This document shows, one piece after another, positions 19,352-61,839 of a stretch of 64,000 nt of DNA. Under the pieces are notes generated by a model. The model ran no database searches and was not told where the DNA came from. It saw only the letters and a list, made by a program, of their open reading frames with translations. The stretch is taken from the sequence record OQ599310; one strand, written 5' to 3'. This stretch comes from Escherichia phage 55. The position numbers were made by a program, and so were the translations under genes. Position 1 is the stretch's first letter. Each line of letters opens with the position of its first letter.

Positions 19352-19993
19352 TTATAATGCTTTTAAACTCTCTGCGAGAGCTTTAAATGCTTCGTCAGCA
19401 CTGTTTTTGGTGATTTCCACCGAATTTTCTGATTCTGATATTTGTTTAGGAGTAACCCAAGCATCTGGAGCAGAAGGTCCCCATACGGCATCTACACCGA
19501 CGGTTAATTTAAATCCTTCGTTCACGATACGGTACCCTTTATTGGTGTCGGTTAAAGAACCAAGACCACGAGAGGAAACACCTGGAATCCAACCAGCTCG
19601 TATATTAGCAGCTAATTTATCGCCGGGACCATGGTCGCCTTCAATAATTCTAGCACGTCCATATACATCGTTTCCTTTCCACCACATATCTTCAATAATG
19701 ATAGCGGCTTGCATAGGGTCAACATTTGCACGAGGTGGATGGTTTAATTCTCCAAGGGCTTGTTTGGTTGCGACTTGTTCTTTAATATAGTCACTTACTG
19801 CTTTTTCCAAAACGCGTTTAGGATATAAACGTTTATTTCGGTTAACAACCTCTGCCTGAAGAAAAATACCTTCTATATAAAGCCCTGGTTTTAAGCCAGA
19901 ATCTTTTCCATCATGAGATTCCAACATTGGAACGCCATCAATAATCTCACCGGGTTGACCCCAAGTTTCAATAAGTAACTCGGGTTTATTCAT
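19352..19993 (-). CDS. 21: prohead core protease gp21
   Basis: 213 aa; synteny 20-67-68-21-22-23. Confidence 0.9.
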   Translation of the reverse strand: MNKPELLIETWGQPGEIIDGVPMLESHDGKDSGLKPGLYIEGIFLQAEVVNRNKRLYPKRVLEKAVSDYIKEQVATKQALGELNHPPRANVDPMQAAIIIEDMWWKGNDVYGRARIIEGDHGPGDKLAANIRAGWIPGVSSRGLGSLTDTNKGYRIVNEGFKLTVGVDAVWGPSAPDAWVTPKQISESENSVEITKNSADEAFKALAESLKAL

Positions 19994-22225: not shown

Positions 22226-22253
22226 TGTATTCTCCAAATGGGAATTATAGTTA

Positions 22254-48297: not shown

Positions 48298-48983
<686 letters not shown>

Positions 48984-48997
48984 TTTTCACAAAACAG

Positions 48998-49026
48998 TTT
49001 ACATAAGGATGATGGTGTGATACTAT
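48998..49026 (+). promoter_or_regulatory. early promoter with stem-loop upstream of ipI
   Basis: TTTACA / TACTAT; inverted repeat GGATGAT..ATCATCC. Confidence 0.65.
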
Positions 49027-49060
49027 CATCCTATCAAATAAACAACCTCAAGGAAATAAA

Positions 49061-49348
49061 ATGAAAACCTATAAAGAATTTATATCACCTGTTGCTAACG
49101 TTTCTACTCTGACCGAAGCAACCCTTACTTCCGAAGTTATTAAAGCAAATAAAGGACGTGAGGGTAAACCGATGATTAGTCTGGTTGATGGTGAAGAAGT
49201 AAAAGGTACTGTTTACTTAGGTGATGGATGGTCTGCTAAGAAAGATGGCGCTACTGTTGTTATCTCTCCGGCCGAAGAGACCGCACTGTTTAAAGCTAAG
49301 CATATTTCTGTAGCTCAGCTTAAAATTATTGCAAAAACTCTTCTGTAA
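49061..49348 (+). CDS. ipI: internal protein I (capsid-targeted, injected)
   Basis: 95 aa; N-terminal MKTYKEFI CTS; body matches remembered T4 IPI. Confidence 0.9.
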   Translation: MKTYKEFISPVANVSTLTEATLTSEVIKANKGREGKPMISLVDGEEVKGTVYLGDGWSAKKDGATVVISPAEETALFKAKHISVAQLKIIAKTLL

Positions 49349-49352
49349 GTAG

Positions 49353-49381
49353 TTTACATGCTGATAGGACTATGTTATAGT
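49353..49381 (+). promoter_or_regulatory. early promoter with stem-loop
   Basis: TTTACA / TATAGT; palindrome GATAGGACTA..TAGTCCTATC. Confidence 0.65.
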
Positions 49382-49416
49382 AGTCCTATCAAATCAACAA
49401 CCAAACGGAAAAACAA

Positions 49417-49680
49417 ATGAAAACCTATAAAGAATTTATCGCTGAATCTCAATCTTCTACTCTGTCAGAGAACTACGAATCATTCTCTTACAACAACGAC
49501 CATGCAATGTTCTACGACCGAAACATCGGTACTTATGTCCATGTATGGGGTGTTAAAGATGGTAATGTAGTTGTTAAGAAAAACTCTAAAGAAGGCAACG
49601 GACGAGGCCAGGTAAAAATTACCAGCAAGAAAGCTATCCAAGCTTACGTCGATTATGTTAAACGCGAAGCTGGTATTTAA
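49417..49680 (+). CDS. CTS-bearing internal-protein-like protein (87 aa)
   Basis: N-terminus MKTYKEFIAE; first 23 nt identical to ipI start; early promoter 49353-49381. Confidence 0.75.
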   Translation: MKTYKEFIAESQSSTLSENYESFSYNNDHAMFYDRNIGTYVHVWGVKDGNVVVKKNSKEGNGRGQVKITSKKAIQAYVDYVKREAGI

Positions 49681-49683
49681 TAG

Positions 49684-49712
49684 TTTACATGATGATAGGA
49701 CTATGTTATAGT
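49684..49712 (+). promoter_or_regulatory. early promoter with stem-loop (same as 49353 copy)
   Basis: Same 40-nt promoter/palindrome sequence. Confidence 0.65.
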
Positions 49713-49749
49713 AGTCCTATCAAATCAAATGAGTAAATGGAGAAATAAA

Positions 49750-49935
49750 ATGAAACGCGCTGAACTGATTCGTAATGTTGCTATAGTAATTGCTTCAATG
49801 GCTTTTAGTTTTTCGATGTTTGTAGGATTCATTTGTGGACTACTGACAACAACTGAAAACTCTATCTCATTGGTAGTAGCATTTCTAATCGGCTTAATCG
49901 CTATCGTTATGGATAAAATTGCAAAAGGTGAGTAA
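49750..49935 (+). CDS. small membrane protein (61 aa)
   Basis: Hydrophobic helices; RBS GGAG; early promoter 49684-49712. Confidence 0.6.
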   Translation: MKRAELIRNVAIVIASMAFSFSMFVGFICGLLTTTENSISLVVAFLIGLIAIVMDKIAKGE

Positions 49936-49936
49936 A

Positions 49937-50299
49937 ATGAAATATCACGTATATGCGGATTTTGAAGCAAATCCTTCTAAAGACCCGGATTGTCGTTTAT
50001 TCCGTAATCCGTTTGATTCAGCAGCTCAAGCATGGGCCTGGATTAAAACTTGTACTCCTTCTTACACTTTCTTTGAAGTGGTAGATGATAATGGTGTTTT
50101 GCATCCAGAACCTACAGAAACTATTAATTTCCTTCTGTTTGCTGGTTATGACTGTTATCCTCTTGGTGGTATTGACGACCTTGTTGCTACAGGAAAAACT
50201 GTCGAAGCTCTTCGCGAAATTTATAAAAACGCAGAAGAAAATTTTGACTGGTATCATATTGTTGATGCTCATACCTTTGAAGTGGTGGAACATTCATGA
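49937..50299 (+). CDS. hypothetical protein
   Basis: 120 aa; ATG overlaps upstream stop. Confidence 0.6.
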   Translation: MKYHVYADFEANPSKDPDCRLFRNPFDSAAQAWAWIKTCTPSYTFFEVVDDNGVLHPEPTETINFLLFAGYDCYPLGGIDDLVATGKTVEALREIYKNAEENFDWYHIVDAHTFEVVEHS

Positions 50300-50586
50300 T
50301 TCTTTATGCTAAGGTAAAATCCGTTGAGAATGGATATGAAAGCGATCAACGTGCAGCTAAAGCACTAGTCGATTACTATGGTATTTTGACCCACTTTGAA
50401 GTTGAAAAGGTTTACGTCGACCGTTCATCTTCACAGGTTAAATTACTTTGGGAAGACCGCAAATTTAATAGTGTGAACTTTGATTTCTTTATTGAAACAG
50501 AAAAAGGCCCTCTTGAATATGATATTTTCAAGAATCCTTTGAAATTACGTTGCATTGAATATAATTACATTAATATGGTACGGTGA
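50296..50586 (+). CDS. hypothetical protein
   Basis: 96 aa; translationally coupled. Confidence 0.6.
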   Translation: MILYAKVKSVENGYESDQRAAKALVDYYGILTHFEVEKVYVDRSSSQVKLLWEDRKFNSVNFDFFIETEKGPLEYDIFKNPLKLRCIEYNYINMVR

Positions 50587-50590
50587 TTAA

Positions 50591-51106
50591 ATGAATATTC
50601 GTTTAGGCAGTACAATTCCTAAGGGCTACGTAATTGATGTCACTACCTATGAAAATGATGGTGACAACTATAAAACCAAAACATTGTTTGAAGTGGAAGA
50701 GCATGAGCTCCAACAGTTTAAATATCTCTTGAAGAAATTTAAGAGCCGTCATTCTAGCACCAAAGCCGAACGTTATTGTGGTAATACACCATTCAGTGAT
50801 TGCTCGCTTTTAATCTATGAATACTTGGTTGAAGGGCTGTTCTCAGACCAGCTTTATCCAGAATTCATTAAAAAGGTCTTTGGTATTGAAGTCGACCTCG
50901 GTAATAAATCTGAAGAAGATGAATCACGTGTATTCGACCTGTTCTTTGTGAAAGGCGATGAGATATCTCAAGGTCTTATTGATATTCTTGGCTATGCTTC
51001 TGAATACTATGATTACGATTTCTTGCGTGTAGTTGAACGTGTCGAATTTGCTTATATTGAAGAAGAAATCGTTTTGCCAACCGTTAAAATGTTTGATTTG
51101 CTTTAA
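50591..51106 (+). CDS. hypothetical protein
   Basis: 171 aa ORF in early operon. Confidence 0.6.
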   Translation: MNIRLGSTIPKGYVIDVTTYENDGDNYKTKTLFEVEEHELQQFKYLLKKFKSRHSSTKAERYCGNTPFSDCSLLIYEYLVEGLFSDQLYPEFIKKVFGIEVDLGNKSEEDESRVFDLFFVKGDEISQGLIDILGYASEYYDYDFLRVVERVEFAYIEEEIVLPTVKMFDLL

Positions 51107-51123
51107 GAATAATTTGTTATTAT
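51096..51123 (+). promoter_or_regulatory. candidate middle promoter upstream of tRNA genes
   Basis: TGCTTTA 51099-51105, 12 nt, TATTAT. Confidence 0.45.
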
Positions 51124-51185
51124 TAATTCATACCCTCTATTACCAAAGGTGCTCTAAAGTGCCTTTCATAATAGAAAGTTATTTA

Positions 51186-51259
51186 GGCCCTGTAGCTCAA
51201 CGGTTAGCAGCAGTCCCCTCATAAGGGAAAGGTTACCAGTTCGAATCTGGTCTGGGTCA
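51186..51259 (+). tRNA. tRNA with CAU anticodon (Met or lysidine-Ile type), imperfect stems
   Basis: Hand-folded cloverleaf: T-arm ACCAG/TTCGAAT/CTGGT, loop CTCATAA; one acceptor mismatch, 3-bp D stem, one G-A in anticodon stem. Confidence 0.55.
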
Positions 51260-51265
51260 TATATT

Positions 51266-51342
<77 letters not shown>

Positions 51343-51360
51343 ACTTTAAGTGAGGAAAAT

Positions 51361-51705
51361 ATGAAAGGCAATGTTTATCTGGTAGTTCATGATTTAACGT
51401 TTTATTTTAACGAATATGATACAGTTATTTCTCATCGATTGATTAATTCGCTGTATCAGCATGCCGATTACATCTATGTTCAAAATGAATTTGGTCATTG
51501 GAAGTTCATTAAAAACCGTTCCGGGTTAACTAGTTTTGAATACTTTGACCGTAAAGACCTTTTAAACGAAATCCCATTGCAACATCGGTTTCAGAAACGC
51601 GAATCATTATATTATTGCCGTCATATACCAAACGCCGAATGTGTTGATGAAGCAATTAATCTATGGCGTAGACGTAGAGAACAAATTGATGATATGCCAA
51701 AATAA
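51361..51705 (+). CDS. hypothetical protein
   Basis: ATG 51361 after GAGGAAAA RBS; ORF-track start 51313 lies inside tRNA-Arg. Confidence 0.6.
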   Translation: MKGNVYLVVHDLTFYFNEYDTVISHRLINSLYQHADYIYVQNEFGHWKFIKNRSGLTSFEYFDRKDLLNEIPLQHRFQKRESLYYCRHIPNAECVDEAINLWRRRREQIDDMPK

Positions 51706-51719
51706 GAAGCCGGGTCGCT

Positions 51720-52006
51720 ACCGGCAAGACGTCGGACTGATGTTCCCTGAGTAAGGACTGGTCTTAATAAATCTTTATGATTCGTTAATATCCCCTTACA
51801 TCACAGCAGAAACGGCGCACAGAATTATCGATTCGAGGAAATATCTTTGCCGTAAGCCGAGTAGCGTTTTTGACGGAACGTTCGGATATGGTCGAGATAT
51901 GGCCTTTTAAAATATTGAGTAGCGTCAACTACTTAATAACCGGGTTCAAATCCCGGCGTTTCGTACAAACACTTACCTAGTAGGTGGAAACCCCGACAAG
52001 GTATAT
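51720..52006 (+). ncRNA. candidate small stable RNA region (T4 rnaC/rnaD-like?) with tRNA-like T-arm
   Basis: ~290 nt without ORF in the tRNA neighbourhood; hairpin GCCGG..CCGGC at 51710-51725; T-arm CCGGG/TTCAAAT/CCCGG at 51940-51956; no canonical cloverleaf. Confidence 0.3.
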
Positions 52007-52036
52007 AGCCCCTTCCGAAAGGTTGGGGCTTTTTTG
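52007..52036 (+). terminator. rho-independent terminator (repeat copy 1)
   Basis: AGCCCCTTCCgaaaGGTTGGGGCT then TTTTTT. Confidence 0.7.
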
Positions 52037-52044
52037 TATAAATA
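52037..52044 (+). promoter_or_regulatory. late promoter TATAAATA
   Basis: Exact TATAAATA 36 nt upstream of ATG 52080. Confidence 0.6.
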
Positions 52045-52079
52045 TAGTAAACAATAAACCTACTTTCTAAGGACCATCA

Positions 52080-52706
52080 ATGTATACTTTTAATGAATTT
52101 TTAGCCGAAACGGAAGTAATCACCGAAGCCGGTGTACGTATGACAAAAGAGAAGTGGCAAGCTGCTTACGATGCTATTTCTGGTACAAAAACTAGTACAG
52201 AGTTTTTCAAAAACGTTCAAGCCATGTACGGTATCGACACTTCCAGCCAAAAAGAATATTACAGAGCTTCTAAAGCATTCAAAGATATTGTTAGTGGTGG
52301 TGTTTCTGCTAAATCTGGTTCGCCTAAAGTAAAACCTGCTCCTACCACTCCTAAACCTGCGACCCCTAAAGCAGTAGCAAAACCTGAGCCTAAGCCGGAA
52401 GTAAAAGCAACTCCTAAAGCTCCTGCTCTTAAGTTTGATACTTCTAGCCTGGAAAAAAAATATAAACAACTATCTTCGCTTGTTCGTGATATTGAATCCG
52501 ATACATCTTCACTCGTTCGTGAATTCAACAGTCTTCGTAATGGCCAACATATCAACAACCTTGATACCCCAGACCTTTATCGTCTTTATTTGACTATTGA
52601 AGGTTTGAAGTACACTCAACCACTTCACGATGAGATTAAAGAAAAACTTCGTCAGGCAGGTCGTTTGGCTGCTGACGCTGCTCAGTATGCAAAAACCCGT
52701 AAATAA
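52080..52706 (+). CDS. CTS-like N-terminus protein with Lys/Pro-rich linker (IPIII-like?)
   Basis: 208 aa; MYTFNEFLAE N-terminus; own late promoter and flanking terminators. Confidence 0.7.
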   Translation: MYTFNEFLAETEVITEAGVRMTKEKWQAAYDAISGTKTSTEFFKNVQAMYGIDTSSQKEYYRASKAFKDIVSGGVSAKSGSPKVKPAPTTPKPATPKAVAKPEPKPEVKATPKAPALKFDTSSLEKKYKQLSSLVRDIESDTSSLVREFNSLRNGQHINNLDTPDLYRLYLTIEGLKYTQPLHDEIKEKLRQAGRLAADAAQYAKTRK

Positions 52707-52724
52707 TTAAGTTACAATCACTTA

Positions 52725-52750
52725 AGCCCCTTCCTATGGTTGGGGCTTTC
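52725..52750 (+). terminator. terminator-like hairpin (repeat copy 2)
   Basis: AGCCCCTTCCtatGGTTGGGGCT then TTTC. Confidence 0.55.
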
Positions 52751-52785
52751 GGGCATCTAGGGCAGATAAATTTTTCACAAAGTTG

Positions 52786-52813
52786 TTTACTTCTCCTTGA
52801 GGTATGATACTAT
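52786..52813 (+). promoter_or_regulatory. early promoter
   Basis: GTTTACT ... TGATACTAT; ends in TAGACCTATC repeat. Confidence 0.55.
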
Positions 52814-52843
52814 AGACCTATCAAAACAAATGAGGAAAACATT

Positions 52844-53347
52844 ATGAGTCTTTATACTGAACTGAATAAAAAATCTGAAGAATCGCGTGACGTTGTTTTT
52901 AAAAATGTACAAAAGCGTATTTTGGAAAAGATGTATGATGCTGCATCTAAAGGTGAAAAATCATGCCGCTTTCCGATGAGATGTTCTACAGATTTATGCT
53001 CAAATACTATTGAATGGTTAGAAAGCGAAGGTCTTACTGTAGAGAAAAACCCGGCGACTTCTATTGACGGTGAATCATATATTAGTATTTCTTGGGATAA
53101 ACCACAGGTTAATGAGAAAGACGGTGATTGGGTTGTGGATGTTAAGACTTCTGATGGTGGACGTTCTGTTGAAGTTTCAGCCGTAGTTAAAGGTACACAT
53201 GGGCAAAATAGCTGGGGATGTGGTGGTGAAGAAAAAGAAATTGTTCTTAGTGTGATTGCAAGGTCTACTAGCAATAAAATTGCCCAGAGCATCATCTATG
53301 CTGCATGTATCGAAGCTGGAAAAATTTGCAAAATTAAAAATAAATGA
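52844..53347 (+). CDS. hypothetical protein
   Basis: 167 aa; RBS GAGGAAAA; early promoter 52786-52813. Confidence 0.65.
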   Translation: MSLYTELNKKSEESRDVVFKNVQKRILEKMYDAASKGEKSCRFPMRCSTDLCSNTIEWLESEGLTVEKNPATSIDGESYISISWDKPQVNEKDGDWVVDVKTSDGGRSVEVSAVVKGTHGQNSWGCGGEEKEIVLSVIARSTSNKIAQSIIYAACIEAGKICKIKNK

Positions 53348-53376
53348 TGTACAAACACCATGGACGGTGTTACTAT
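53348..53376 (+). promoter_or_regulatory. early promoter
   Basis: TGTACA, 17 nt, TACTAT. Confidence 0.55.
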
Positions 53377-53404
53377 AGACCTATCAAATCAAGAGGAAAA
53401 CAAA

Positions 53405-53632
53405 ATGGCTAAAGTTAGTATTGATGTCGTTGATTATGAATACACAGAAGAAGTTATTCGCAACCGTCACCCTGAAGTTCGTATCGATTCAGCCCAAGAT
53501 TCCAAGTTCTGGACAACTGAGCTTAATCTGAGTGGTCCTTATGAAGCTGTTAAGAAGTTCATGGTTGAAGAATACTGTGAAGGCATGCACCCCGAAGACG
53601 CCAAGTTTTATGTCAATTTGATTAAAAAATAA
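53405..53632 (+). CDS. hypothetical protein
   Basis: 75 aa from ATG after GAGGAAAA; track start 53360 overlaps promoter. Confidence 0.6.
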   Translation: MAKVSIDVVDYEYTEEVIRNRHPEVRIDSAQDSKFWTTELNLSGPYEAVKKFMVEEYCEGMHPEDAKFYVNLIKK

Positions 53633-53661
53633 TTTACAAACTCTTGAGAGCAGAGTATAAT
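53633..53661 (+). promoter_or_regulatory. early promoter with stem-loop
   Basis: TTTACA, 17 nt, TATAAT; inverted repeat GAGAGCA..TGCTCTC. Confidence 0.7.
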
Positions 53662-53702
53662 GCTCTCATTGGATAATAAACCACCAATTGAAAGGTAATA
53701 AT

Positions 53703-54296
53703 ATGAACACACTGAAGAAACTTGTTGAATTCATCCGCACTAAACTGGGTACTGCTATGGCTAAAAATCTGACTGTCGAAGAACAGTATAACGCAGCTGC
53801 AGATAAGTTGATTACCCAAATCAAAGAACTAAAAACGGCTTCTGTTAAATCTATTAATGAAGAAAAACGTATTCGCGAACTTGTTAATGAAAAGAACAAG
53901 CAAGCCGCTTCTAAGGAACGTGAAATTCGTAAGCTCCTGGCTGAAGGACAAGATGTTACCATGCATGCTAAGCTTGGTCTTCTGTATCGTCGAACTGCCG
54001 AACAACTTAATACAAAAGCTGACGGGTATGCCGCTATGCGAATTGAAATTGCTCGTAAGGTGGTTGAACTTGACGATGCTCGTCAGAACCTGGCAATCAA
54101 ACTCGAATACATTCGTGAAACTCGAGCAGCCAATGCCCTTGGTATCTCTACGGCTGATGATGTAATTGAAATCGCTGCACTGACTAAGGTTGATATCGAA
54201 GACACTCTGACTCGTGTTGAAACGTTCAATGGCACTCCAGCTGGTGTCGAAACCACTTCTGCTGATGTACAAGAATATATTAACTCTTTGAAATAA
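53703..54296 (+). CDS. coiled-coil protein (possible PspA/IM30-like, unverified)
   Basis: 198 aa, long helical heptad-like sequence; early promoter 53633-53661; terminator 54305-54327. Confidence 0.6.
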
Positions 54297-54304
54297 AATA
54301 ATAC

Positions 54305-54327
54305 GGAGGACTCCGGTCCTCCTTTTG
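54305..54327 (+). terminator. rho-independent terminator
   Basis: GGAGGAC tccg GTCCTCC then TTTTGG. Confidence 0.7.
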
Positions 54328-54345
54328 GATAATAAAGGAGTTAAC

Positions 54346-54948
54346 ATGCGAAACCAAAATAATGATATTGACTCAATGTTCGAAGAGTTCCGAGATAAGG
54401 TAAATCCACCTACGTCCTTAGTTGATTCATTACGATATGTTGCAACCGGACGTAAATGGTACTGGTCGTCTTCTTATGAGACCACCGAGAAAACGGCTAG
54501 CCATAGCAGAAAATCTTTATTAGCCCCAGGTATTATGATTCATGATATCGGAGCTATTGCTAAACTAGTTGCAGACCATGATATTAGATTCACTGATTTC
54601 GTTGCTCCTACGTGGTCTGTTTGTTGTTTAAACACTGAATGGGAATATATCAGCGAACGCTCTGAAGATTATTATGGTTTTAGAGATAAGCTTCTGAGGT
54701 CTAATATGTTTTATATCGATACAGAAGTTCTAGTCGATAATAAAAAATATTACTTTACGTTAATCATCGATTCTGAAACTATGTATGAAGGCAAGCCTTT
54801 GCTTAAAAGAGTTGATGCTTTAAGTGCTATTGATGCGCTTTATGAAACTATGGTTGTTAGTCCTAATTTCACTAACAATTTAATCCTTGAGCAATTTATT
54901 ATGGAATGTAGAGAATATGTCAAAGCCAACCCTATACATGCCAAGTAA
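54346..54948 (+). CDS. hypothetical protein
   Basis: 200 aa; RBS AAGGAG. Confidence 0.6.
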   Translation: MRNQNNDIDSMFEEFRDKVNPPTSLVDSLRYVATGRKWYWSSSYETTEKTASHSRKSLLAPGIMIHDIGAIAKLVADHDIRFTDFVAPTWSVCCLNTEWEYISERSEDYYGFRDKLLRSNMFYIDTEVLVDNKKYYFTLIIDSETMYEGKPLLKRVDALSAIDALYETMVVSPNFTNNLILEQFIMECREYVKANPIHAK

Positions 54949-55312
54949 GCCCTGGGCGTATGAATACAAGCGTAAATTAATCCCAAATGAAGTACTATTT
55001 GGCCCTATTTTAGCTTTAGCATTTTTAATCTTTATGATTATAGGAGCTGTTTTAGATTCTAGTGAAGTTATATCGTCTGATGCAGCATTTTCATTAATGT
55101 TCGTCGCACCACTTATTGTACCGTTTTTATTAATGCCTATTAATTGGGCAGGATATTGGCACCAAGGCCGTCATCACAGAGCCCGATTAAGAGAATGGAA
55201 AGTTCAGTGCGCAAAAGCCCAAGCTCAGTATGATGAAGCTGTTAAAAAGTATGAATATGAAGAAGCTATGGAATTCGTTAAGGAAATAAGATGCAAAAGC
55301 CTCAACTCTTAA
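54917..55312 (+). CDS. membrane protein, C-terminal FVKEIRCK motif (start uncertain: 54917 or 54938)
   Basis: Two hydrophobic helices; overlaps upstream gene end. Confidence 0.5.
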   Translation: MSKPTLYMPSKPWAYEYKRKLIPNEVLFGPILALAFLIFMIIGAVLDSSEVISSDAAFSLMFVAPLIVPFLLMPINWAGYWHQGRHHRARLREWKVQCAKAQAQYDEAVKKYEYEEAMEFVKEIRCKSLNS

Positions 55313-55650
55313 CCGTATGGCCTTCTCTTGGTGAGAACATTCTAATTTTTATTATGAGTATTGGCATGGGATTTGCCTTTGGATTAGTTGGATTTCTTAT
55401 TGACGGAGTTGTGTTAGGATTTATAGGGAACACCGGTGGATTCACAGACCAATGGCAGGACTTACGATATACTCAAGCCTTTGCATCCATCGCATCATTT
55501 TGTACTGTAGTCTATTTTTACTACGATTTTATAAACCACAACAAGAAAAATAAAAAGGTTTACGCTTCTCAAATGATTAGTTATAATGAACTCCTAGCTA
55601 GACGTGAAAATGAAACAATCGAAAACTTTATTAAGGAATGTAGAAAATGA
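55291..55650 (+). CDS. membrane protein ending ENFIKECRK
   Basis: 119 aa, hydrophobic core; overlaps upstream ORF by 22 nt. Confidence 0.6.
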   Translation: MQKPQLLTVWPSLGENILIFIMSIGMGFAFGLVGFLIDGVVLGFIGNTGGFTDQWQDLRYTQAFASIASFCTVVYFYYDFINHNKKNKKVYASQMISYNELLARRENETIENFIKECRK

Positions 55651-55952
55651 GTAAGATTATTGAAATTAAAGTACCAGAGTTTAATGATGCCAAATCCGCT
55701 TCAGATGCAATTTATAAACTTCTGAATCAAGCTGAACGTATCGAAGAAGAAGCAACAAAGATCGCAGACCAATATGCTGTATCATTTTCTGTAGGTGATT
55801 ATGGTAGCGGTCGTACTTATTATCCTAAGGGTGAAATCGTATCCCAGTGGATGAAAGATGAAATTGAAAATAATGGCGGCGATGTTAAGCGTGAAGGTAA
55901 TGGATACGTTATTACTGAAGGTGCTTGGGTTTCGTCTTCTGCGTTGTGCTAA
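55647..55952 (+). CDS. small protein paralog A (C-terminal GAWVSSSALC)
   Basis: 101 aa; first of three tandem paralogs. Confidence 0.65.
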   Translation: MSKIIEIKVPEFNDAKSASDAIYKLLNQAERIEEEATKIADQYAVSFSVGDYGSGRTYYPKGEIVSQWMKDEIENNGGDVKREGNGYVITEGAWVSSSALC

Positions 55953-55961
55953 GGAATCATT

Positions 55962-56234
55962 ATGTCTAAAGAACAAACCGAACTGGCTGAAGCTGTAGCA
56001 AAAATCTATGCAGCTATTGAGGCTGCCAAAGAAATTGCTGATAAACAAAACACAACATTCGACTTGTATCCAGCTTATGGTATGGGTGGAACCTATCATT
56101 CACCCGGACATCTTAAAGCCGATCTTGAACGTTGTACAAAAAACGGCCAGGCTGAATGGGCTGACGTTTACCAATACGACTACAACCTGAGCCTTGAAGA
56201 TGGCGGTTGGGTTGCATCTTCTCACACTTGCTAA
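55962..56234 (+). CDS. small protein paralog B (C-terminal GGWVASSHTC)
   Basis: 90 aa; shares KIY..IE.A.EIAD and GxGGTY motifs with paralog A. Confidence 0.65.
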   Translation: MSKEQTELAEAVAKIYAAIEAAKEIADKQNTTFDLYPAYGMGGTYHSPGHLKADLERCTKNGQAEWADVYQYDYNLSLEDGGWVASSHTC

Positions 56235-56243
56235 GGAAATCAT

Positions 56244-56441
56244 ATGTCTCGTGAATTAGATTGTGCTGTACGTACCGCAGTAGCTGCTCTAGAAAACCTG
56301 TTCCAGATTGCAACCGAAGAGCGTGAAGAAGTTACATTGTGGATTGAAGATAACGCAGGTCTGAATCTCCAGGACGCGATCTCATTATCCCACAATAGTA
56401 TCACTGTTCAAGGCTGGGTATCGTCTAGTTATTCTTGCTAA
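56244..56441 (+). CDS. small protein paralog C (C-terminal QGWVSSSYSC)
   Basis: 65 aa; same C-terminal motif and same TAAGGAA-ATG junction. Confidence 0.6.
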   Translation: MSRELDCAVRTAVAALENLFQIATEEREEVTLWIEDNAGLNLQDAISLSHNSITVQGWVSSSYSC

Positions 56442-56446
56442 AACAG

Positions 56447-56475
56447 TTTACAACAAGATAGGGCTATGTTATAGT
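56447..56475 (+). promoter_or_regulatory. early promoter with stem-loop
   Basis: TTTACA / TATAGT; palindrome GATAGGGCTA..TAGCCCTATC. Confidence 0.65.
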
Positions 56476-56503
56476 AGCCCTATCAAATTAAATGGAGTTC
56501 ACA

Positions 56504-56743
56504 ATGATTTATTACGAAAGTATCGGAACCAAAGTGGTTGGTAAAACCATTACTCGTGAAAAGTTTGCAAAGATATTCGATATGCGTTATAAAAAATCTG
56601 AACACAAAGGCATCCGATTCGAAGATGCGCACTGTACAATTTGCCCTTATAATGAAGACATAAACGGTACAATCGTTCCATTGGTAGAGGCTTCACATGA
56701 TGACCTCTGGGATGAATATAATATCGCATGTCGTGAAATTTAA
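56504..56743 (+). CDS. hypothetical protein
   Basis: 79 aa; RBS GGAG; early promoter 56447-56475. Confidence 0.6.
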   Translation: MIYYESIGTKVVGKTITREKFAKIFDMRYKKSEHKGIRFEDAHCTICPYNEDINGTIVPLVEASHDDLWDEYNIACREI

Positions 56744-56767
56744 GTGAATTAATCCGAGGAAAATATT

Positions 56768-57724
56768 ATGATGTTAGTTATTGGTTCTCGTGCACTTCAC
56801 TATCATGGTCTTATTGATTCTAGCGCTATCAAAAATAGCGATTGGGACTTTATTGCGGACCAAGGTTCTTGGAATGCATTCAAAAATCAAATGATGGGTG
56901 TATATGTCCACCAAGATAACCCTGATGTCCAAGTTTTCAAATGCTTCCATAATGGACGCGAAACTCATTTTGAAGCATACATCGTTCCGGCTATCACTAA
57001 CGTTCGCGAACTAGTCGGTGAACTCACTCCTGAAGATTTCACGTCTTCTTATGACCTTTTAAAATACGCCAAGAAAAATTTGACTAAAGACCGTTTGAAC
57101 GGGTTTTACTGGGCAACTCCTGAGATATGTCTTGCAATTAAGATGTCTCATCGTTTCAAGAAAAATAATCCATTCTTTTTAAAGACTATGAACCATATTC
57201 AGTATCTTCGTGGTAAAGGTGTTACACTGAACGATGAACTTACTGAAATTATGCTGAAACGCCAGAAAGAAACCTTGAACTATGCTCACCCAGTTCTTGA
57301 CACTTCTAAAAGTGCGTTCTTTAAAGATGACATCTATACATATGACCATGATACTATTCATGAAGCCATTGCACTAACAGACCGTCCAGCGTATACATTT
57401 TATATGAAAGATGGTTCTGAAGTCATGACCTCACGCGAGAAGTTCGAATCATTACCAGAAATGGTCAAATTGGCCGGCGTATACGAAGAATCATGTGTAC
57501 TAGCGTTAGAACGTTCTCAGATTCCTAATAACTTTGAAATCCATCCACGTGATAGTTTTATGATGGCCCTTGAAAAGGTCTGTACATCAATCACATCAGG
57601 ATGGTTCCGTGAGTTCGCTTGGGAAAATTATAGCAAAGTAGTAAGTATGTACCAAAGCTTAGGACACGACGATTACGTCAAGCGTTTCAAACAAAACTTT
57701 CATATGGTAAAACCTTTCAAATAA
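56768..57724 (+). CDS. hypothetical 318-aa protein, possible nucleotidyltransferase-like N-terminus
   Basis: Largest ORF of the accessory region; N-terminal IGSRAL...SDWDFIAD pattern. Confidence 0.65.
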   Translation: MMLVIGSRALHYHGLIDSSAIKNSDWDFIADQGSWNAFKNQMMGVYVHQDNPDVQVFKCFHNGRETHFEAYIVPAITNVRELVGELTPEDFTSSYDLLKYAKKNLTKDRLNGFYWATPEICLAIKMSHRFKKNNPFFLKTMNHIQYLRGKGVTLNDELTEIMLKRQKETLNYAHPVLDTSKSAFFKDDIYTYDHDTIHEAIALTDRPAYTFYMKDGSEVMTSREKFESLPEMVKLAGVYEESCVLALERSQIPNNFEIHPRDSFMMALEKVCTSITSGWFREFAWENYSKVVSMYQSLGHDDYVKRFKQNFHMVKPFK

Positions 57725-57737
57725 TTTCACAAAACAG

Positions 57738-57766
57738 TTTACAAGGTCTGTAGTTGTTGATACTAT
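57738..57766 (+). promoter_or_regulatory. early promoter with stem-loop
   Basis: TTTACA, 17 nt, TACTAT; GGTCT..AGACC. Confidence 0.6.
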
Positions 57767-57804
57767 AGACCTATCAAAACAAATGAGTGAATGGAGATAT
57801 AAAA

Positions 57805-58005
57805 ATGACTACTTTGAATAAACGTTTCGGTAAAGCTAAACCTGGTTGTGCAGCAGAACGTCGTTATGTTTTCGCTCAGTTAGAAGATGTAGAGTATCAG
57901 ATTAATCAAGTTCACATTACTGGTATCGAGCCTATGTGTGGCCTTGAAGCTCTTCGTGAAGTTCGTGATGGGTATCGTCGTGTCATCGAAGAAATGTCAA
58001 AATAA
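57805..58005 (+). CDS. hypothetical protein
   Basis: 66 aa; RBS GGAG; early promoter 57738-57766. Confidence 0.55.
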   Translation: MTTLNKRFGKAKPGCAAERRYVFAQLEDVEYQINQVHITGIEPMCGLEALREVRDGYRRVIEEMSK

Positions 58006-58006
58006 G

Positions 58007-58035
58007 TGTACAAACTGATAGGACTATGTTATAGT
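58007..58035 (+). promoter_or_regulatory. early promoter with stem-loop (third GATAGGACTA copy)
   Basis: TGTACA / TATAGT. Confidence 0.6.
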
Positions 58036-58063
58036 AGTCCTATTAAAACATGAGGAGAATATT

Positions 58064-58369
58064 ATGAAATTAGGCGAAACCAACCGAATCGGTCTTTTAA
58101 CAATATTTGTATCACTTTTTTACGCAGCTCTTTCTGTTGCAGTATTACAAAAGGCTTACAGTATGGATGGTGTTCCTGGTTTTGTATTCTTATCGCCGTT
58201 TTTGCTATTCGTTGGAGCATTGTTATTATATGCCACGACTAGTTTCGACCATAACGTCTGGGTCAATTATAAATGTAAATTGTCTGAAGAAGAACACGCA
58301 GAAGCTCGTAAAAAAGCTATTGAATCTACCAATCTAGAAAATTTCATTAAAGAATGTCGAGGAAAATAA
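58064..58369 (+). CDS. membrane protein ending ENFIKECRGK
   Basis: 101 aa, two hydrophobic helices; early promoter 58007-58035. Confidence 0.65.
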   Translation: MKLGETNRIGLLTIFVSLFYAALSVAVLQKAYSMDGVPGFVFLSPFLLFVGALLLYATTSFDHNVWVNYKCKLSEEEHAEARKKAIESTNLENFIKECRGK

Positions 58370-58370
58370 T

Positions 58371-59057
58371 ATGAATAGTTCTAAAGTGTTTAATAGTCAA
58401 GCTCGTGCAGTAGGTGGTTTTGCCGGCGGTATTTCTAATGATAAAATCAAGAACGAGCCTATGTTCTTCAACTGTAGTTTAGAATTTGCTTATAATAACG
58501 GCGGTCCTATTACTCGCAGCTTCATCATGAACTTGCCGGATGATTGGAACACCGACCAGGTTGTATTTGATTCACGAGTCCATATGCTGATGCCTGGTTG
58601 GTATCCTGCTATTCCTGGTTATCACCATGATGACGTACCACGCCCGGATATTCCGGTTGGTCAACATTTTATTACTGCAGGACAACCTGACTATGACAAT
58701 CCTCGCTATTTGTCTGAACATATTCTTGGTCTTGTTAACGCTGATGTGTGTCCTACTCATTTTGCAACAGGAACTGCAGAGTTCAGTCAGATTCCTGATG
58801 GCGAACTTATCTATCGCCAGTGGCACAAAGAAGTCCTCGAAAAAATTGAAAAAGGTGAACTAGAGAAATGGGAAGCTCCGGACCGTACTCTTCTTCAGTT
58901 TGATTGGCAAACATGGCACACTGGTTCTCGTGCAATTAGTAATGGATGGCGTTGGTTCGGACGTGTATCTCGTAATACAGACCGAGTTAAAAAGATTACC
59001 AATGAAATTCGTGTCAACGCTCAAGTTTATCTAGAATTCCCTATGGAAGGCTGGTAA
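58371..59057 (+). CDS. hypothetical 228-aa protein
   Basis: His/Trp-rich (GYHHDD, TWHTG); no confident family assignment. Confidence 0.6.
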   Translation: MNSSKVFNSQARAVGGFAGGISNDKIKNEPMFFNCSLEFAYNNGGPITRSFIMNLPDDWNTDQVVFDSRVHMLMPGWYPAIPGYHHDDVPRPDIPVGQHFITAGQPDYDNPRYLSEHILGLVNADVCPTHFATGTAEFSQIPDGELIYRQWHKEVLEKIEKGELEKWEAPDRTLLQFDWQTWHTGSRAISNGWRWFGRVSRNTDRVKKITNEIRVNAQVYLEFPMEGW

Positions 59058-59548
59058 TGATTAACAAAACATATTGGTCTAATATTGACGACGGCAATGA
59101 AGGTATTTCGTACTATTCAGTGGATTGGACAGAATGTCCATCCTACTTAGTGAAACGTATTTGCCAAGAATTTAAAATCGACCAGCCAGCAGGTATTATC
59201 GTGAACAGATACATTAACGGATATCAACCTATCGATGAAGTAATACGAACAACTCAAGCTGATCTTGAAAAGTTTTTCAATAAGTGCCAATGGATAACAG
59301 GATGGATTATATTTGTACCGTCGGTATGGTTTTTTAGTACTAAGGTGAGTTCTTTCGGTTTTGTTGATATTATTGCTATCTTATTAGCATCTATTATCGT
59401 AAGTATAATTGGTGGTATAATTGGTGGAGGTACTATAGGCATCATTATTAATCTTGTTAAAAGTAGTTTACAGGAACGTAAAGACAAGATAAAGGCCAAG
59501 AATAACGAAGTTGAACGTTTTATTACCGAATGCAGGAATTTGAGATGA
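59057..59548 (+). CDS. membrane protein ending ERFITECRNLR
   Basis: 163 aa; soluble N-domain, Gly/Ile-rich TM segment. Confidence 0.65.
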   Translation: MINKTYWSNIDDGNEGISYYSVDWTECPSYLVKRICQEFKIDQPAGIIVNRYINGYQPIDEVIRTTQADLEKFFNKCQWITGWIIFVPSVWFFSTKVSSFGFVDIIAILLASIIVSIIGGIIGGGTIGIIINLVKSSLQERKDKIKAKNNEVERFITECRNLR

Positions 59549-59781
59549 GTATAGCAATTTACATTAAATCAGAATCATGCGATAGTTATCTGTACACGTA
59601 TGATAAAGATGTGTCAGAAGAAAAAATCAAAGACGATCTTAATATGGACCTTGATTTGTTCCGTCCTATTGCAGATTACAAACTTGCGGTCTCTAATAGT
59701 GAAAGTCCATCTAAAGAAACGCGCATTGAAGAATTTATGTCCGAATTAATGGCCAAATCATGGGACAGAGATGATGAGTAA
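59545..59781 (+). CDS. hypothetical protein
   Basis: 78 aa; start ambiguous (59530 or 59545). Confidence 0.5.
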   Translation: MSIAIYIKSESCDSYLYTYDKDVSEEKIKDDLNMDLDLFRPIADYKLAVSNSESPSKETRIEEFMSELMAKSWDRDDE

Positions 59782-60229
59782 GAAAAATAAAGTGAAAGAA
59801 CTATCAGCCGGTATTATTTTCCTTACCGAAGATAAAGAATTATTCATGGGCCGTGTAACTGGTTCTCGTTCTAAAGGTGCATTAGCTCATCGGTGGGATA
59901 TTCCTAAAGGCCGTGTCGAACCTGGCGAATCTCCTATTGAAGCCGCTATTCGTGAATGCGAAGAAGAAACTGGGTTTACACAATATGACCCTGCCTTCCT
60001 GAAAGACCTAGGTGAGCATCATTACTCAGACAATAAGAATATTCATCTGTTCCTATATACCATCCCTGTAGAGCACGAGCAATTCAGAAACAGTGTTTGT
60101 AATTCCTATCATACATTCCCAGACGGACGACAAATTCCTGAATTTGATGCATTCGCTTTAATTAAACCTTCTCAATGGGAATATGTAATGGGCAAATCGT
60201 TATATAAGGTGCTCACTACCCTCCTATAA
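59771..60229 (+). CDS. nudE: Nudix hydrolase
   Basis: Nudix box GRVEPGESPIEAAIRECEEETG; immediately upstream of e as in T4. Confidence 0.9.
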   Translation: MMSKKNKVKELSAGIIFLTEDKELFMGRVTGSRSKGALAHRWDIPKGRVEPGESPIEAAIRECEEETGFTQYDPAFLKDLGEHHYSDNKNIHLFLYTIPVEHEQFRNSVCNSYHTFPDGRQIPEFDAFALIKPSQWEYVMGKSLYKVLTTLL

Positions 60230-60236
60230 GTAATAA

Positions 60237-60262
60237 ATACCTCCTATAAACGTGGGAGGTAT
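60237..60262 (+). promoter_or_regulatory. hairpin sequestering the Shine-Dalgarno of gene e
   Basis: 8-bp stem ATACCTCC / GGAGGTAT; SD GGAGG sits in the 3' arm; loop TATAAACGTG. Confidence 0.7.
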
Positions 60263-60263
60263 T

Positions 60264-60752
60264 ATGAATATATTTGAAATGCTTCGTAATGACGAAGGTC
60301 TTAGACTGACTTTATACAAAGACACTGAAGGCTTTTGGACAATTGGCATAGGCCATTTAGTAACAAAGAACCCGTCTTTAGCCGTAGCTAAAGCTGAACT
60401 CGACAGAATGATCGGACGTAAATGCAACGGTACAATTACCCTTGATGAGGCTGAAAAGCTATTTAATGAAGACGTTGATAAAGCCGTTCGCGGAATTTTG
60501 GGTAATGCTAAACTTAAACCGGTATATGATTCTTTAGATGCGGTTCGTCGATGTGCATTGGTCAATATGGTCTTCCAAATGGGTGTAGCAGGCGTCGCCG
60601 GTTTTACTAATTCTCTTCGTATGCTTCAACAGAAACGTTGGGATGAAGCGGCAGTAAATCTAGCCCAATCTAAATGGTATCGTCAGACACCTAATCGCGC
60701 GAAACGCGTAATCTCAACATTTAAAACAGGAACTTGGAAAGCGTATATATGA
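60264..60752 (+). CDS. e: lysozyme (endolysin)
   Basis: MNIFEMLR...DEAEKLFN...[13 protein letters not shown] matches T4 lysozyme; start ATG 60264 after GGAGG; track start 60252 is GTG. Confidence 0.97.
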
Positions 60753-61030
60753 AAACATATAGCGAATTTTTATCAGAATCTATTCTTAACGAAGCTACTG
60801 ACACATTTGCAACTAAGCTAGGTGCCGCTTTGGTTGAAGCCGAAAGTCTATTAGCACGTATTTCTGAACTTGCTAGTAAGATAGATACTCGCAAATTTGA
60901 GCGCACCAGTGATATCGTTAAGCTTGAAGCACTGTTGCGTATGTGCGATAAACCCGAAGAAATCGCTAAGAACGGCTCGCTGATGAAACAACGTCTTGAA
61001 AAATATATTTCAGGCGCTTCAGAAAAATAG
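60749..61030 (+). CDS. CTS-bearing internal-protein-like protein (94 aa; IPII/IPIII position)
   Basis: N-terminus [10 protein letters not shown]; ATGA overlap with e stop. Confidence 0.75.
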
Positions 61031-61032
61031 TG

Positions 61033-61062
61033 TTTACTTCCTCCAAGGGTTTTGATACTATA
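61033..61062 (+). promoter_or_regulatory. early promoter upstream of denV
   Basis: GTTTACT ... TGATACTAT. Confidence 0.55.
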
Positions 61063-61088
61063 CATCTATCAACTACTTGGAGGAAATT

Positions 61089-61502
61089 ATGACTCGTATC
61101 AATTTAACACTTGTTTCTGAACTGACCGACCAACATCTTATGGCTGAGTATCGTGAATTACCACGCGTATTTGGTGCAGTCCGTAAACATGTTCAAAATG
61201 GTAAACGTGTAAAAGATTTTAAAATCTCTCCAACATTTATCTTAGGCACAGGTCACGTAACATTCTTTTATGACAAACTCGAATTTTTACGTTTACGTCA
61301 AATCGAGCTAATCGCGGAATGTTTAAAACGCGGTTTCAAAATCAAGGACACGACAGTCCAGGATATTTCCGACATTCCTGTAGAATTTCGTAATAATTAT
61401 GTCCCGTCCGAAGCGTCCATTTCGATAAGTCAAGCACGCTTAGATGAAAAAATTGCTCAACGTCCGACTTGGTACAAATACTATGGTAAATCAATTTACT
61501 AA
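61089..61502 (+). CDS. denV: endonuclease V (pyrimidine dimer DNA glycosylase)
   Basis: [12 protein letters not shown]...[10 protein letters not shown] matches remembered T4 DenV; track start 61077 is TTG. Confidence 0.95.
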
Positions 61503-61509
61503 GGAAAAA

Positions 61510-61839
61510 ATGAAAACATATCAAGAGTTTATCACTGAAGTTACATTATCTGCGGAACAGAAAGCTGCTATCGAAGAAAGTAAAAATCCCAAAGTAACAT
61601 ATAAAGTAAATAGTAAAGGCGTTTTTGATGGCTTGGTTCAAGACCCTGAATTGAAAAAAGCTCTTTCTAAAACTAATGCGTACTTTGCTCCTAAATTTAA
61701 CACAGCAGGTGTACTTATTGGATTGGATGTATTCAACTCTAAAGGTGTTCTATCTAATGCCTTTGGTTATGCCGCTAACAAAATTACCAAAGCCGCATGG
61801 GAATCCAATACCAAACAAGCTCAAAAGCCTAGAGTATAA
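61510..61839 (+). CDS. CTS-bearing internal-protein-like protein (109 aa)
   Basis: MKTYQEFITE at internal Met after AAGGAAAAA RBS. Confidence 0.75.
   Translation: MKTYQEFITEVTLSAEQKAAIEESKNPKVTYKVNSKGVFDGLVQDPELKKALSKTNAYFAPKFNTAGVLIGLDVFNSKGVLSNAFGYAANKITKAAWESNTKQAQKPRV

Follow-up and report, generated by a model that had tools for sequence, protein, structure and literature searches.

Our favored reading, which we hold with some confidence, is that five genes of Escherichia phage 55 make up a Mosigvirus set of internal proteins, which would be packaged, cleaved, injected, likely used for counter-defense, and exchanged as cassettes. One of the five is internal protein I (IPI), a known anti-restriction protein. 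By analogy, the other four probably belong to a recognized, highly variable class of injected counter-defense proteins. The 64-kb stretch of DNA that we analyzed (the window) is from a Mosigvirus, or RB69-like T-even phage, and shares about 96% identity with each of G53, CEV1, and NicPhage.

The capsid-targeting tag

An earlier note had claimed that five open reading frames (ORFs) share an N-terminal tag of the form M-K/Y-T-Y/F-x-E-F-I/L-x-E. We confirmed all five on the + strand of the window, with ATG starts at 49061, 49417, 52080, 60749, and 61510, and a six-frame scan of the window for M[KY]T[YF].EF[ILVM] matched these five and nothing else. The start of the tag is present in all five, but the final glutamate of the consensus does not hold, as position 10 of IPI is proline. 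Four of the tags resemble MKTYQEFIAE and fit M-K-T-Y-x-E-F-[IL]; the tag at 52080 is a variant (MYTFNEFLAE). Two looser patterns found no additional ORF in the window or in the parts of G53, the closest complete genome, that lie beyond it.

We also considered that the shared N-termini might be chance similarity, or that the ORFs might be non-coding. The only support for this is the shortness of the motif. Given the amino-acid frequencies, about 0.0005 matches to M-[KY]-T-[YF]-x-E-F-[IL] are expected, versus five observed, and 200 shuffles gave no matches. Also, each ORF matches a PHROG family and has homologs in many phage genomes. We therefore give this explanation practically no chance.

These features support the identification of the tag, from its sequence, as the capsid-targeting sequence (CTS) of T4. 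Each ORF has a site of the type cleaved by gp21 ([IL]-x-E), which is at residues 8–10 in four of them (IAE10, LAE10, LSE10, and ITE10) and at residues 17–19 in IPI (LTE19). Three of the five have a second such site at residues 15–18. The predicted mature protein has a pI of 9–10 in four of five cases. The mature domains are unrelated to one another and to T4 IPII and IPIII. The mature domains of T4 Ip1–Ip3 are likewise reported to be mutually unrelated (PMC12373910).

The window also holds the T4-type genes for the portal, protease, scaffold, and capsid. These include gp21, the prohead core serine protease (19352..19993, - strand; Pfam Peptidase_S77, 2.9e-107), and gp22, the scaffolding core protein (18506..19318, - strand; Pfam T4_CASP, 1.5e-89), which is flanked by gp23, gp24, and gp20. 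Proteins with a CTS are directed to the gp22 core, and gp21 is expected to remove the tag. By extension from T4, we propose that the tag draws each protein into the prohead's scaffolding core, and that gp21 would then cut it off: in IPI, behind residue 19; in the others, behind residue 10, a residue from 15 to 18, or both. The small and mostly basic mature proteins would stay with the DNA in the head and enter the cell alongside it. For the four proteins besides IPI, packaging, cleavage, and injection are predictions from sequence.

IPI and the cassette beside it

The first of the five genes (49061..49348, + strand; MKTYKEFISP) encodes 95 amino acids and is ipI, as the earlier note had it. It matches Pfam IPI_T4 (PF11634) at 3.2e-50 (168 bits; cut-off, 25) over residues 20–95, and the structure of IPI* (PDB 2JUB) at 8e-42, with residues 20–95 aligned to 1–76. 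Both matches begin at residue 20, which is the known N-terminus of IPI*; cleavage after LTE19, as in T4 IPI, would give a 76-residue IPI*. The protein is 87% identical to T4 IPI and 99% identical to RB69 IPI, has the same length as T4 IPI, and its gene adjoins 57B in both phages. The other four ORFs match neither the IPI_T4 profile nor 2JUB. T4 IPI (as IPI*) inhibits GmrSD from E. coli CT596, and by orthology we infer that IPI* of this phage acts as an inhibitor of a GmrSD-type enzyme (type IV restriction). One difference is that the DNA of this phage is probably arabinosylated, judging from its relation to RB69 and NicPhage, instead of carrying glucosylated hydroxymethylcytosine (glucosyl-hmC; PMC13390438).

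Beside ipI is a rare cassette allele (49417..49680, + strand), which encodes 87 amino acids and starts with MKTYKEFIAE. With sites IAE10 and LSE18, its predicted mature protein has about 69–77 residues and a pI of about 9.3. It belongs to phrog_13302, which has no assigned function, and it is annotated as hypothetical throughout the records shown. Its relatives are found in only 35 phage records, and a search of 1.84 billion representatives gave just three clusters. The proteins in two of these lack the tag, and their genes lie among the early genes of other T4-like phages. Untagged homologs are gp015 of Dhakavirus IME341, between the topoisomerase gene 52 and motA, and a protein from a metagenomic T4-like contig, 3' of genes for a DnaB-type helicase and an Rv2179c-like exonuclease. 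Only the Mosigvirus form of this domain carries the CTS, within a promoter-repeat cassette beside ipI.

The repeats in this cassette resemble PeSLs, which are mobile promoter/stem-loop cassettes of T4-type phages (T4/PST consensus TTTACW-N17-TAYWAT; PMC2839356, PMC4122927). There are three intergenic copies on the + strand (direct-repeat family D1), with early-promoter hexamers and hairpins, at breakpoints in gene content between close relatives. Copy 1 (48995..49042), upstream of ipI, is diverged (65% identical to the reference copy), with TTTACA-N17-TACTAT and a 12-bp hairpin (-15.4 kcal/mol, z = -3.9). Copy 2 (49350..49397) is the promoter of the 49417 cassette, with TTTACA-N17-TATAGT, a TG, and a hairpin of -17.7 kcal/mol (z = -5.4). 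Copy 3 (49681..49728; -18.2 kcal/mol, z = -5.35), which is 98% identical to copy 2, closes the cassette just upstream of a tRNA.4-like gene. When aligned to LF82-41, homology is lost at 49446 and regained at 49739, and the breakpoints relative to both LF82-41 and RB69 coincide with the tag and the repeat.

As in published PeSLs, then, an early promoter and stem-loop repeats bound variable ORFs; unlike in those, the 5' recombination joint also takes in about 30 nucleotides that encode the tag (ipI and the 49417 gene are identical at 29 of 30 nucleotides there). Because the joint includes the tag, exchange leaves each incoming domain fused to it. We propose that the internal-protein set turns over by such exchange, and that the unit at the ipI locus is an early promoter/stem-loop, a ribosome-binding site, the CTS, and a variable domain. 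When phages are compared, the breaks in homology fall precisely where the CTS ends and at the promoter repeat that follows. Similar interchangeable cassettes beside ipI, flanked by direct repeats, encode Ip5, Ip7, or Ip9 in T2, T6, RB15, K3, and RB32. The repeat here is 48 nucleotides, versus a "43 bp direct repeat" in the annotations of RB32 and ATK47. (Those annotations carry the names Ip5, Ip7, and Ip9, which are credited to Repoila et al. 1994.) By sequence comparison, the 49417 cassette is none of these three.

Since the same domain is found with and without the tag, a point that seems to be less recognized, the tag appears to have been won or lost by cassette recombination. The 49417 gene would then be a natural case in which recombination at tag-coding DNA turned a cytoplasmic accessory protein into an injected one, or did the opposite. 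Could the tag on some members instead be a relic of recombination that has no role in packaging, on proteins that are made early and stay in the cytoplasm? The untagged forms in IME341 and the metagenomic contig would fit, as would the early-type (not late) promoters that precede both ipI and the 49417 gene, and T4 IPIII is functional when expressed without its CTS (PMC9391042). However, ipI, ipII, and ipIII of T4 also lack perfect late promoters of their own, yet their products are packaged, and a CTS by itself is reportedly enough to carry foreign proteins into heads (PMC3012670). Furthermore, the tag and a cleavage site are intact in all five proteins and in distant homologs of the proteins at 52080 and 61510. 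These homologs, from other genera, are just 35–50% identical and have kept the tag, so it is under selection. We consider a relic very unlikely.

The e/denV genes and a probable third locus

Two of the genes flank denV. The earlier note had observed that the order around e and denV differs from T4's, and this is correct: the order is e-ip-denV-ip here and in RB69, versus e-ipIII-ipII-denV in T4. The first of the two (60749..61030, + strand; 93 amino acids) overlaps the stop codon of e with its ATG (ATGA). It is 92% identical to its ortholog RB69ORF127c, matches phrog_3499 ("internal head protein") at 1e-46, and is 47–52% identical to Ip5 of T2 and RB32 over 84 of its 93 residues (E = 1e-15 to 2e-17). 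The annotation of RB32 equates Ip5 with RB69ORF127c. By sequence, this protein is the Mosigvirus form of Ip5. In RB32 (a Tequatrovirus), Ip5 is in the ipI locus, where it "replaces ipI"; here it is between e and denV. Besides the sites LSE10 and LNE15, it has internal LVE30 and ISE40 sites, and its predicted mature form is not basic.

The second (61510..61839, + strand; 109 amino acids; MKTYQEFITE) begins 8 nucleotides after denV. With the site ITE10, its predicted mature protein has 99 residues and a pI of 9.7. It is 97% identical to its ortholog RB69ORF123c and belongs to phrog_3966, which has no assigned function; nearly all of its homologs, from 90 phage records, are labeled as hypothetical. 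A homolog in the Dhakavirus AnYang (ORF054, about 35% identical) also follows denV and has the same first ten residues.

The known internal-protein loci, on the 57B/ipI side or the e/denV side, hold four of the five genes. The fifth (52080..52706, + strand; 208 amino acids) is outside both, between rnaC and frd.3/e.8. Its tag is off consensus at two positions (K2Y and Y4F), while its Dhakavirus orthologs start with MKTYNEFLNE. Across the family, N-termini are CTS-like, E16 is invariant, and A17 is nearly so. With sites LAE10 and ITE16, the predicted mature protein has about 192 residues. The family (phrog_2280, no assigned function) is found in 138 phage records from several genera, and all of the annotated ones listed say hypothetical. 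A perfect T4 late promoter, TATAAATA, lies 43 nucleotides before the ATG (52037–52044), just after a terminator-like hairpin with a T-run (52007–52036; together 52007..52044, + strand). This TATAAATA occurs at only five sites on the + strand of the window. The same layout is found in JS98 (at -36) and PG7 (at -35), while Marfa has CATAAATA. Downstream of the ORF is a weak terminator-like hairpin (52724..52749, + strand; -14.8 kcal/mol, z = -1.8).

The family combines a late promoter and the tag in Mosigvirus, Dhakavirus, Karamvirus, and Marfavirus, and further homologs are found in phages that infect Serratia, Kosakonia, Yersinia, and other hosts. Its conservation is far above that of typical ip genes and would suit a structural role no less than a part in an arms race. 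This protein, and perhaps others, might be a packaged structural protein (a basic, DNA-associated head filler or an ejection aid) and not a defense inhibitor. The gene is syntenic and conserved across these genera and other T4-like phages, whereas ip genes turn over fast; like virion genes, it is preceded by a conserved late promoter of its own; and the mature protein has a pI of 9.7, with two helical domains joined by a disordered Pro/Ala/Lys-rich linker (AlphaFold2 model, pLDDT 71). But the gene is missing from T4 and other Tequatrovirus, and we detected no DNA-binding fold. Also, the CTS-bearing RB69ORF149c, which occupies the same rnaC to frd.3/e.8 interval, is just 25–30% identical, and its C-terminal part cannot be aligned to the rest of the family, so the protein is dispensable. 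We consider this alternative unlikely. By sequence, the family looks like a semi-conserved internal head protein, and as a third ip locus driven by a late promoter, it seems to be less recognized.

Probable counter-defense

The predicted number of CTS-bearing proteins is five here, three in T4, and seven ORFs in RB69, so this phage does appear to encode more internal proteins than T4, as claimed. Of the five, only IPI has an ortholog among the T4 internal proteins. The remaining four share the tag, small size, and presumed packaged and injected route with IPII and IPIII, as well as the e/denV neighborhood in the case of the proteins at 60749 and 61510. But their matches to IPII and IPIII are confined to the first 10–25 residues, and hhalign aligned the 52080 family to IPIII across 24 N-terminal columns only (probability 7%). 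As similarity ends with the tag, we rejected orthology to IPII or IPIII for all five.

P1 DarA and DarB are packaged anti-restriction proteins that are delivered with the DNA and act before phage gene expression. The ejection proteins of P22, T7, N4, and SPN3US are also loaded into the capsid and enter with the DNA before phage gene expression. These proteins are unrelated in sequence to the five and have other targeting signals; we detected no homology.

The suggestion that the extra proteins are anti-defense candidates fits published work. IPI inhibits GmrSD, and T4 requires IPIII to infect ECOR17 (PMC3012670, PMC9391042, PMC12373910). Ip1, Ip2, and Ip3 each inhibit one different GmrSD enzyme, with GmrSD-ECOR21 and GmrSD-ECOR17 as the targets of Ip2 and Ip3 (PMC12373910). 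By analogy, each of the four non-IPI proteins most likely neutralizes a different first-line host defense. Our best guess for the targets is further enzymes of the GmrSD family, ones directed against DNA with sugar-modified cytosines (arabinosylated in Mosigvirus).

We counted several observations against our reading. The tag at 52080 is off consensus and its family is unusually conserved, and the protein at 60749 has internal [IL]-x-E sites and is not basic. In addition, ip4–10 were screened against GmrSD variants with no reproducible inhibition, and by the numbering, this should include Ip5 (PMC12373910). Also, NicPhage, which encodes an identical 49417 protein and whose ip region is about 97% identical in DNA sequence (98% covered), is restricted by the GmrSD-family enzyme BrxU (PMC13390438). 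The mature-domain searches proposed earlier identified IPI, but fold and family searches with the other four proteins gave no match that points to a mechanism, and a fold search with the 52080 protein was uninformative. PADLOC and NCBIfam gave nothing except low-complexity matches of its linker, to proline-rich regions of TonB and PspC.

The novelty of these proteins had been overstated, because the credit for the variable, CTS-bearing ip gene sets of T-even phages goes to Repoila et al. 1994 (as cited in PMC3012670), RB69 has seven, the protein at 60749 is the named Ip5, and ip4–10 were already screened. It is quite possible, if somewhat doubtful, that the capture of the tag by the 49417 domain and the third ip locus of the 52080 family are, jointly, undescribed.

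Our findings leave the picture of T-even biology unchanged and extend its known catalog. Because internal proteins enter with the DNA, they can disarm defenses that strike ahead of all phage gene expression. In the relatives of the phage that encodes this five-member set, cytosines are arabinosylated instead of glucosylated; since the published screens were done with glucosyl-hmC phages, these proteins would be better tried against enzymes whose substrate is arabinosylated DNA. The tagged and untagged forms of the 49417 domain offer a direct way to ask how injection benefits a phage over early expression, and in the 52080 family, annotation may have overlooked a widespread head component.

Five tagged proteins in a Mosigvirus genome

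Positions 48900-62000 match many Mosigvirus (RB69-like T-even) genomes at 95–97% identity over 92–100% of this region, with vB_EcoM_G53, CEV1, and NicPhage as the closest. The gene order on the + strand is 1 - 57A - 57B - ipI ... tRNAs ... e - denV. The - strand carries the head module: gp24 (15208-16491), gp23 (16920-18488), the gp22 scaffold (18506-19318), the gp21 prohead protease (19352-19993), and the gp20 portal (20654-22237). tRNA-Met (51186-51259) and tRNA-Arg (51266-51342) are solid calls. ARAGORN also reports a 94-nt "tRNA-Lys" at 51873-51966, a call not backed by the Rfam tRNA model; according to the ATK47 record, this is the position of rnaC (species 1 RNA), between the homologs of ORF150c and of the 52080 gene.

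The earlier note claimed that five ORFs begin with the capsid-targeting sequence (the tag) of T4 internal proteins, and all five are present as described. They lie on the + strand, and we name them by their starts: 49061, 49417, 52080, 60749, and 61510. A six-frame scan of the window with M[KY]T[YF].EF[ILVM] matched these five starts and no others (about 5e-4 matches are expected by chance; 0 in 200 shuffles). Looser patterns gave no further ORF in the window, and none in 104 kb of G53, the closest complete genome, outside it. So, these five are probably the complete set for this phage type.

All five proteins have an [Ile/Leu]-x-Glu motif where gp21 of T4 would cut. The motif is IAE10 in 49417, LAE10 in 52080, LSE10 in 60749, ITE10 in 61510, and LTE19 in IPI (49061), the same as in T4. 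Three of the five have a second such site at residues 15–18. The predicted mature proteins are 8–21 kDa, with a predicted pI of 9.0–10.0 in four of them and near neutral in 60749.

As the note had also proposed, this phage has more tagged proteins than T4 (five in the window vs. three in the T4 segment that we examined), and their order around e and denV (e - ip - denV - ip) is that of RB69, not of T4. In the corresponding segment of RB69 there are seven tagged ORFs (ipI, 156c, 149c, 127c, 125c, 124c, and 123c) and LF82-41 has five. In the Dhakavirus AnYang, four tagged genes surround denV (54-2168: IpIII, IpII, denV, the 61510-like ORF054, and ORF053, which is apparently Ip7-like, judging from its N-terminal sequence). 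This set mixes T4-type and Mosigvirus-type members.

Identity of the members

49061 (95 aa) is IPI: it matches Pfam IPI_T4 (3e-50) and PDB 2JUB (8e-42), both starting at residue 20, and is 87% identical to T4 IPI and 99% identical to RB69 IPI. 60749 (93 aa) is of the Ip5 type, with 92% identity to RB69ORF127c and 47–52% to Ip5 of T2 and RB32; the RB32 annotation equates Ip5 with RB69ORF127c. 60749 also falls under PHROG 3499 ("internal head protein") and has 496 phage records. 61510 (109 aa) is 97% identical to RB69ORF123c, and its 90 records are almost all labelled "hypothetical"; its AnYang homolog (ORF054, about 35% identity) starts with MKTYQEFITE and lies directly after denV. The other two proteins belong to phrogs whose function is not assigned. 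49417 (87 aa, phrog_13302, no named family) is found in 35 phage records, 28 from Mosigvirus (95–100% identity) and 7 from Dhakavirus (63%), while 52080 (208 aa, phrog_2280) is found in 138 phage records from several genera.

Beyond the tag, the four non-IPI proteins show no likeness to T4 IPII or IPIII, and their mature domains are not related to one another. We considered that the five might be diverged paralogs, and rejected this because no pair of mature domains reached z >= 4, except for orthologs. For the four non-IPI proteins, PDB sequence searches gave no match below E = 0.1, PADLOC gave no match, and NCBIfam gave only low-complexity matches to the linker of 52080. A word-indexed homolog search with 61510 and 49417 returned near-identical relatives only.

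The ATG of 60749 shares bases with the stop codon that ends the lysozyme gene e (ATGA, 60749-60752), and 61510 starts 8 nt after denV (61502-61510) and is preceded by AAGGA. Given this overlap and spacing, both genes look coupled to housekeeping genes, translationally or transcriptionally, without a promoter of their own. In RB69ORF127c (6923-7204 of the RB69 record), 1 nt is missing after codon 4 relative to 60749-60800 of the window, and 21 nt further on there is 1 extra nt. The two changes scramble the tag core (MKTYMNFYQNLSLNE, compared with one 15-residue sequence shared by the window and LF82-41). Either the 2003 sequence contains an error here or the tag has been lost naturally.

Two other groups of ORFs in the window have similar C-terminal ends. 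Four hydrophobic ORFs in the e.2-e.4 region (54887-55312, 55291-55650, 58064-58369, and 59057-59548) share a C-terminal motif (MEFVKEIRCKSLNS, ENFIKECRK, ENFIKECRGK, and ERFITECRNLR), which suggests a paralogous family with a conserved tail; their e.2/e.3/e.4 counterparts are labelled as membrane proteins in the RB69, ATK47, and LF82-41 records. Three consecutive small ORFs in the region of RB69ORF136c-139c (55647-55952, 55962-56234, and 56244-56441) end in G-x-W-V-[SA]-S-S-x-x-C (GAWVSSSALC, GGWVASSHTC, and QGWVSSSYSC) and look like tandem paralogs.

Cassettes at the ipI locus and a possible third locus at 52080

The ipI locus contains a 48-nt direct repeat (49350-49397 and 49681-49728, 98% identical) and a diverged copy at 48995-49042. 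Each copy has an early-type promoter (TTTACA-N17-TATAGT or TACTAT) overlapped by a 12-bp hairpin (-15 to -18 kcal/mol, z = -3.9 to -5.4). These repeats match the PeSL elements (mobile early promoter plus stem-loop) described for T4-type phages (PMC2839356, PMC4122927). They also match what the RB32 and ATK47 annotations call a "43 bp direct repeat", placed around Ip7 and Ip9. Over their first 30 nt, ipI and 49417 agree at 29 positions. Homology to LF82-41 runs from 48500 to 49446, the tag end of the second gene, and then is lost until 49739; LF82-41 holds Ip7 in the slot of 49417. In RB69, the Ip7 cassette is upstream of ipI, not downstream. Exchange thus moves the variable domain as a unit, and the joints are the tag-coding DNA and the promoter repeat.

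The 49417 domain forms just three clusters among 1.84 billion representative proteins. IME341 gp015 (Dhakavirus, 73 aa) lacks the tag and aligns to 49417 from residue 15 on, with 63% identity; its gene is flanked by topoisomerase gene 52 and motA. At the DNA level, the window and IME341 remain similar beyond the stop codon, into flanking promoter and RBS elements. The third relative, P0023 (72 aa, 47% identity), also lacks the tag and is encoded on a metagenomic contig, downstream of genes for a DnaB-type helicase and an Rv2179c-like exonuclease. We infer that the domain travelled as a small cassette, with gain or loss of the tag en route. Gain seems more likely, as the tag is missing from two of the three known lineages. 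An AlphaFold2 model of 49417, from a three-sequence alignment, had a pLDDT of 44, which is too low for a fold search.

The 52080 gene, flanked by rnaC and the frd.3/e.8 genes, is in neither of the two recognised ip loci. RB69ORF149c occupies the same interval and is tagged (MKTYAEFLTE). Upstream of 52080 comes a terminator-like hairpin, followed by TATAAATA, a perfect late promoter located 43 nt from the ATG; the + strand of the window has this promoter sequence at just five sites. Both elements are kept upstream of the homologs in JS98 and PG7, and Marfa has CATAAATA. The family is found in Mosigvirus, Dhakavirus, Karamvirus, and Marfavirus, and also in phages of Serratia, Kosakonia, Yersinia, Erwinia, and Cronobacter; it is labelled hypothetical in all of the annotated records listed. 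The homologs begin with MKTYNEFLNE (Dhakavirus), MLNFKEFITE (PG7), or MLKFKDILTE (Marfa). E16 never varies and A17 rarely does, which points to a conserved second cleavage site. We also considered homology to T4 IPIII and rejected it: hhalign covered the first 24 columns only, with a probability of 7%.

AlphaFold2 (pLDDT 71) predicts helical domains at about residues 20–72 and 117–208, joined by a disordered Pro/Ala/Lys-rich linker. The main alternative to an injected effector is that 52080 has a structural or DNA-associated role, as its late promoter, its wide conservation, and the basic character of its linker suggest. In RB69, the copy shows just 25–30% identity, with its C-terminal part outside the family alignment, and T4 lacks the gene, so 52080 is not essential.

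Proposed role of the internal proteins

In T4, the tag by itself can direct foreign proteins into the head, and IPI*, the processed form of IPI, blocks the type IV restriction enzyme GmrSD (PMC3012670). T4 requires IPIII to infect ECOR17, and untagged IPIII is active when supplied inside the cell (PMC9391042). Ip1, Ip2, and Ip3 each inhibit a single GmrSD variant, a different one in each case, and do not cross-protect; when ip4-10 of T4-like phages were tried on eight active GmrSD systems, no activity was reproducible (PMC12373910). Our literature searches found no usable virion proteomics for Mosigvirus, RB69, JS98, or fHe-Yen9-01.

We propose that all five proteins are directed by the tag into the prohead core, cleaved by gp21, and injected. 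The four non-IPI proteins, 52080 among them, would be specific inhibitors of first-line host defences, and their targets would most likely be type IV enzymes that attack Mosigvirus DNA. RB69 and NicPhage, which are close relatives of this phage, have 5-arabinosyl-dC in their DNA, and BrxU still cuts NicPhage (PMC13390438). The 49417 protein of NicPhage is identical to that of the window, and over the ip region the two DNAs are about 97% identical. So, insofar as NicPhage has this set, the amounts of these proteins made natively give no protection from BrxU.

Papers and sequence records already cover the class, its variability, the rationale for an anti-defence role, and the RB69 homologs. 49417, 52080, and 61510 are labelled hypothetical or carry no annotation in essentially every record that we examined. 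Judged against these records rather than the original 1994 Ip4-Ip12 sequences, they are new or unrecognised putative internal proteins. A specialist might find only two parts new: the pairing of tagged and untagged forms of the 49417 domain, and the third locus with its conserved late promoter.
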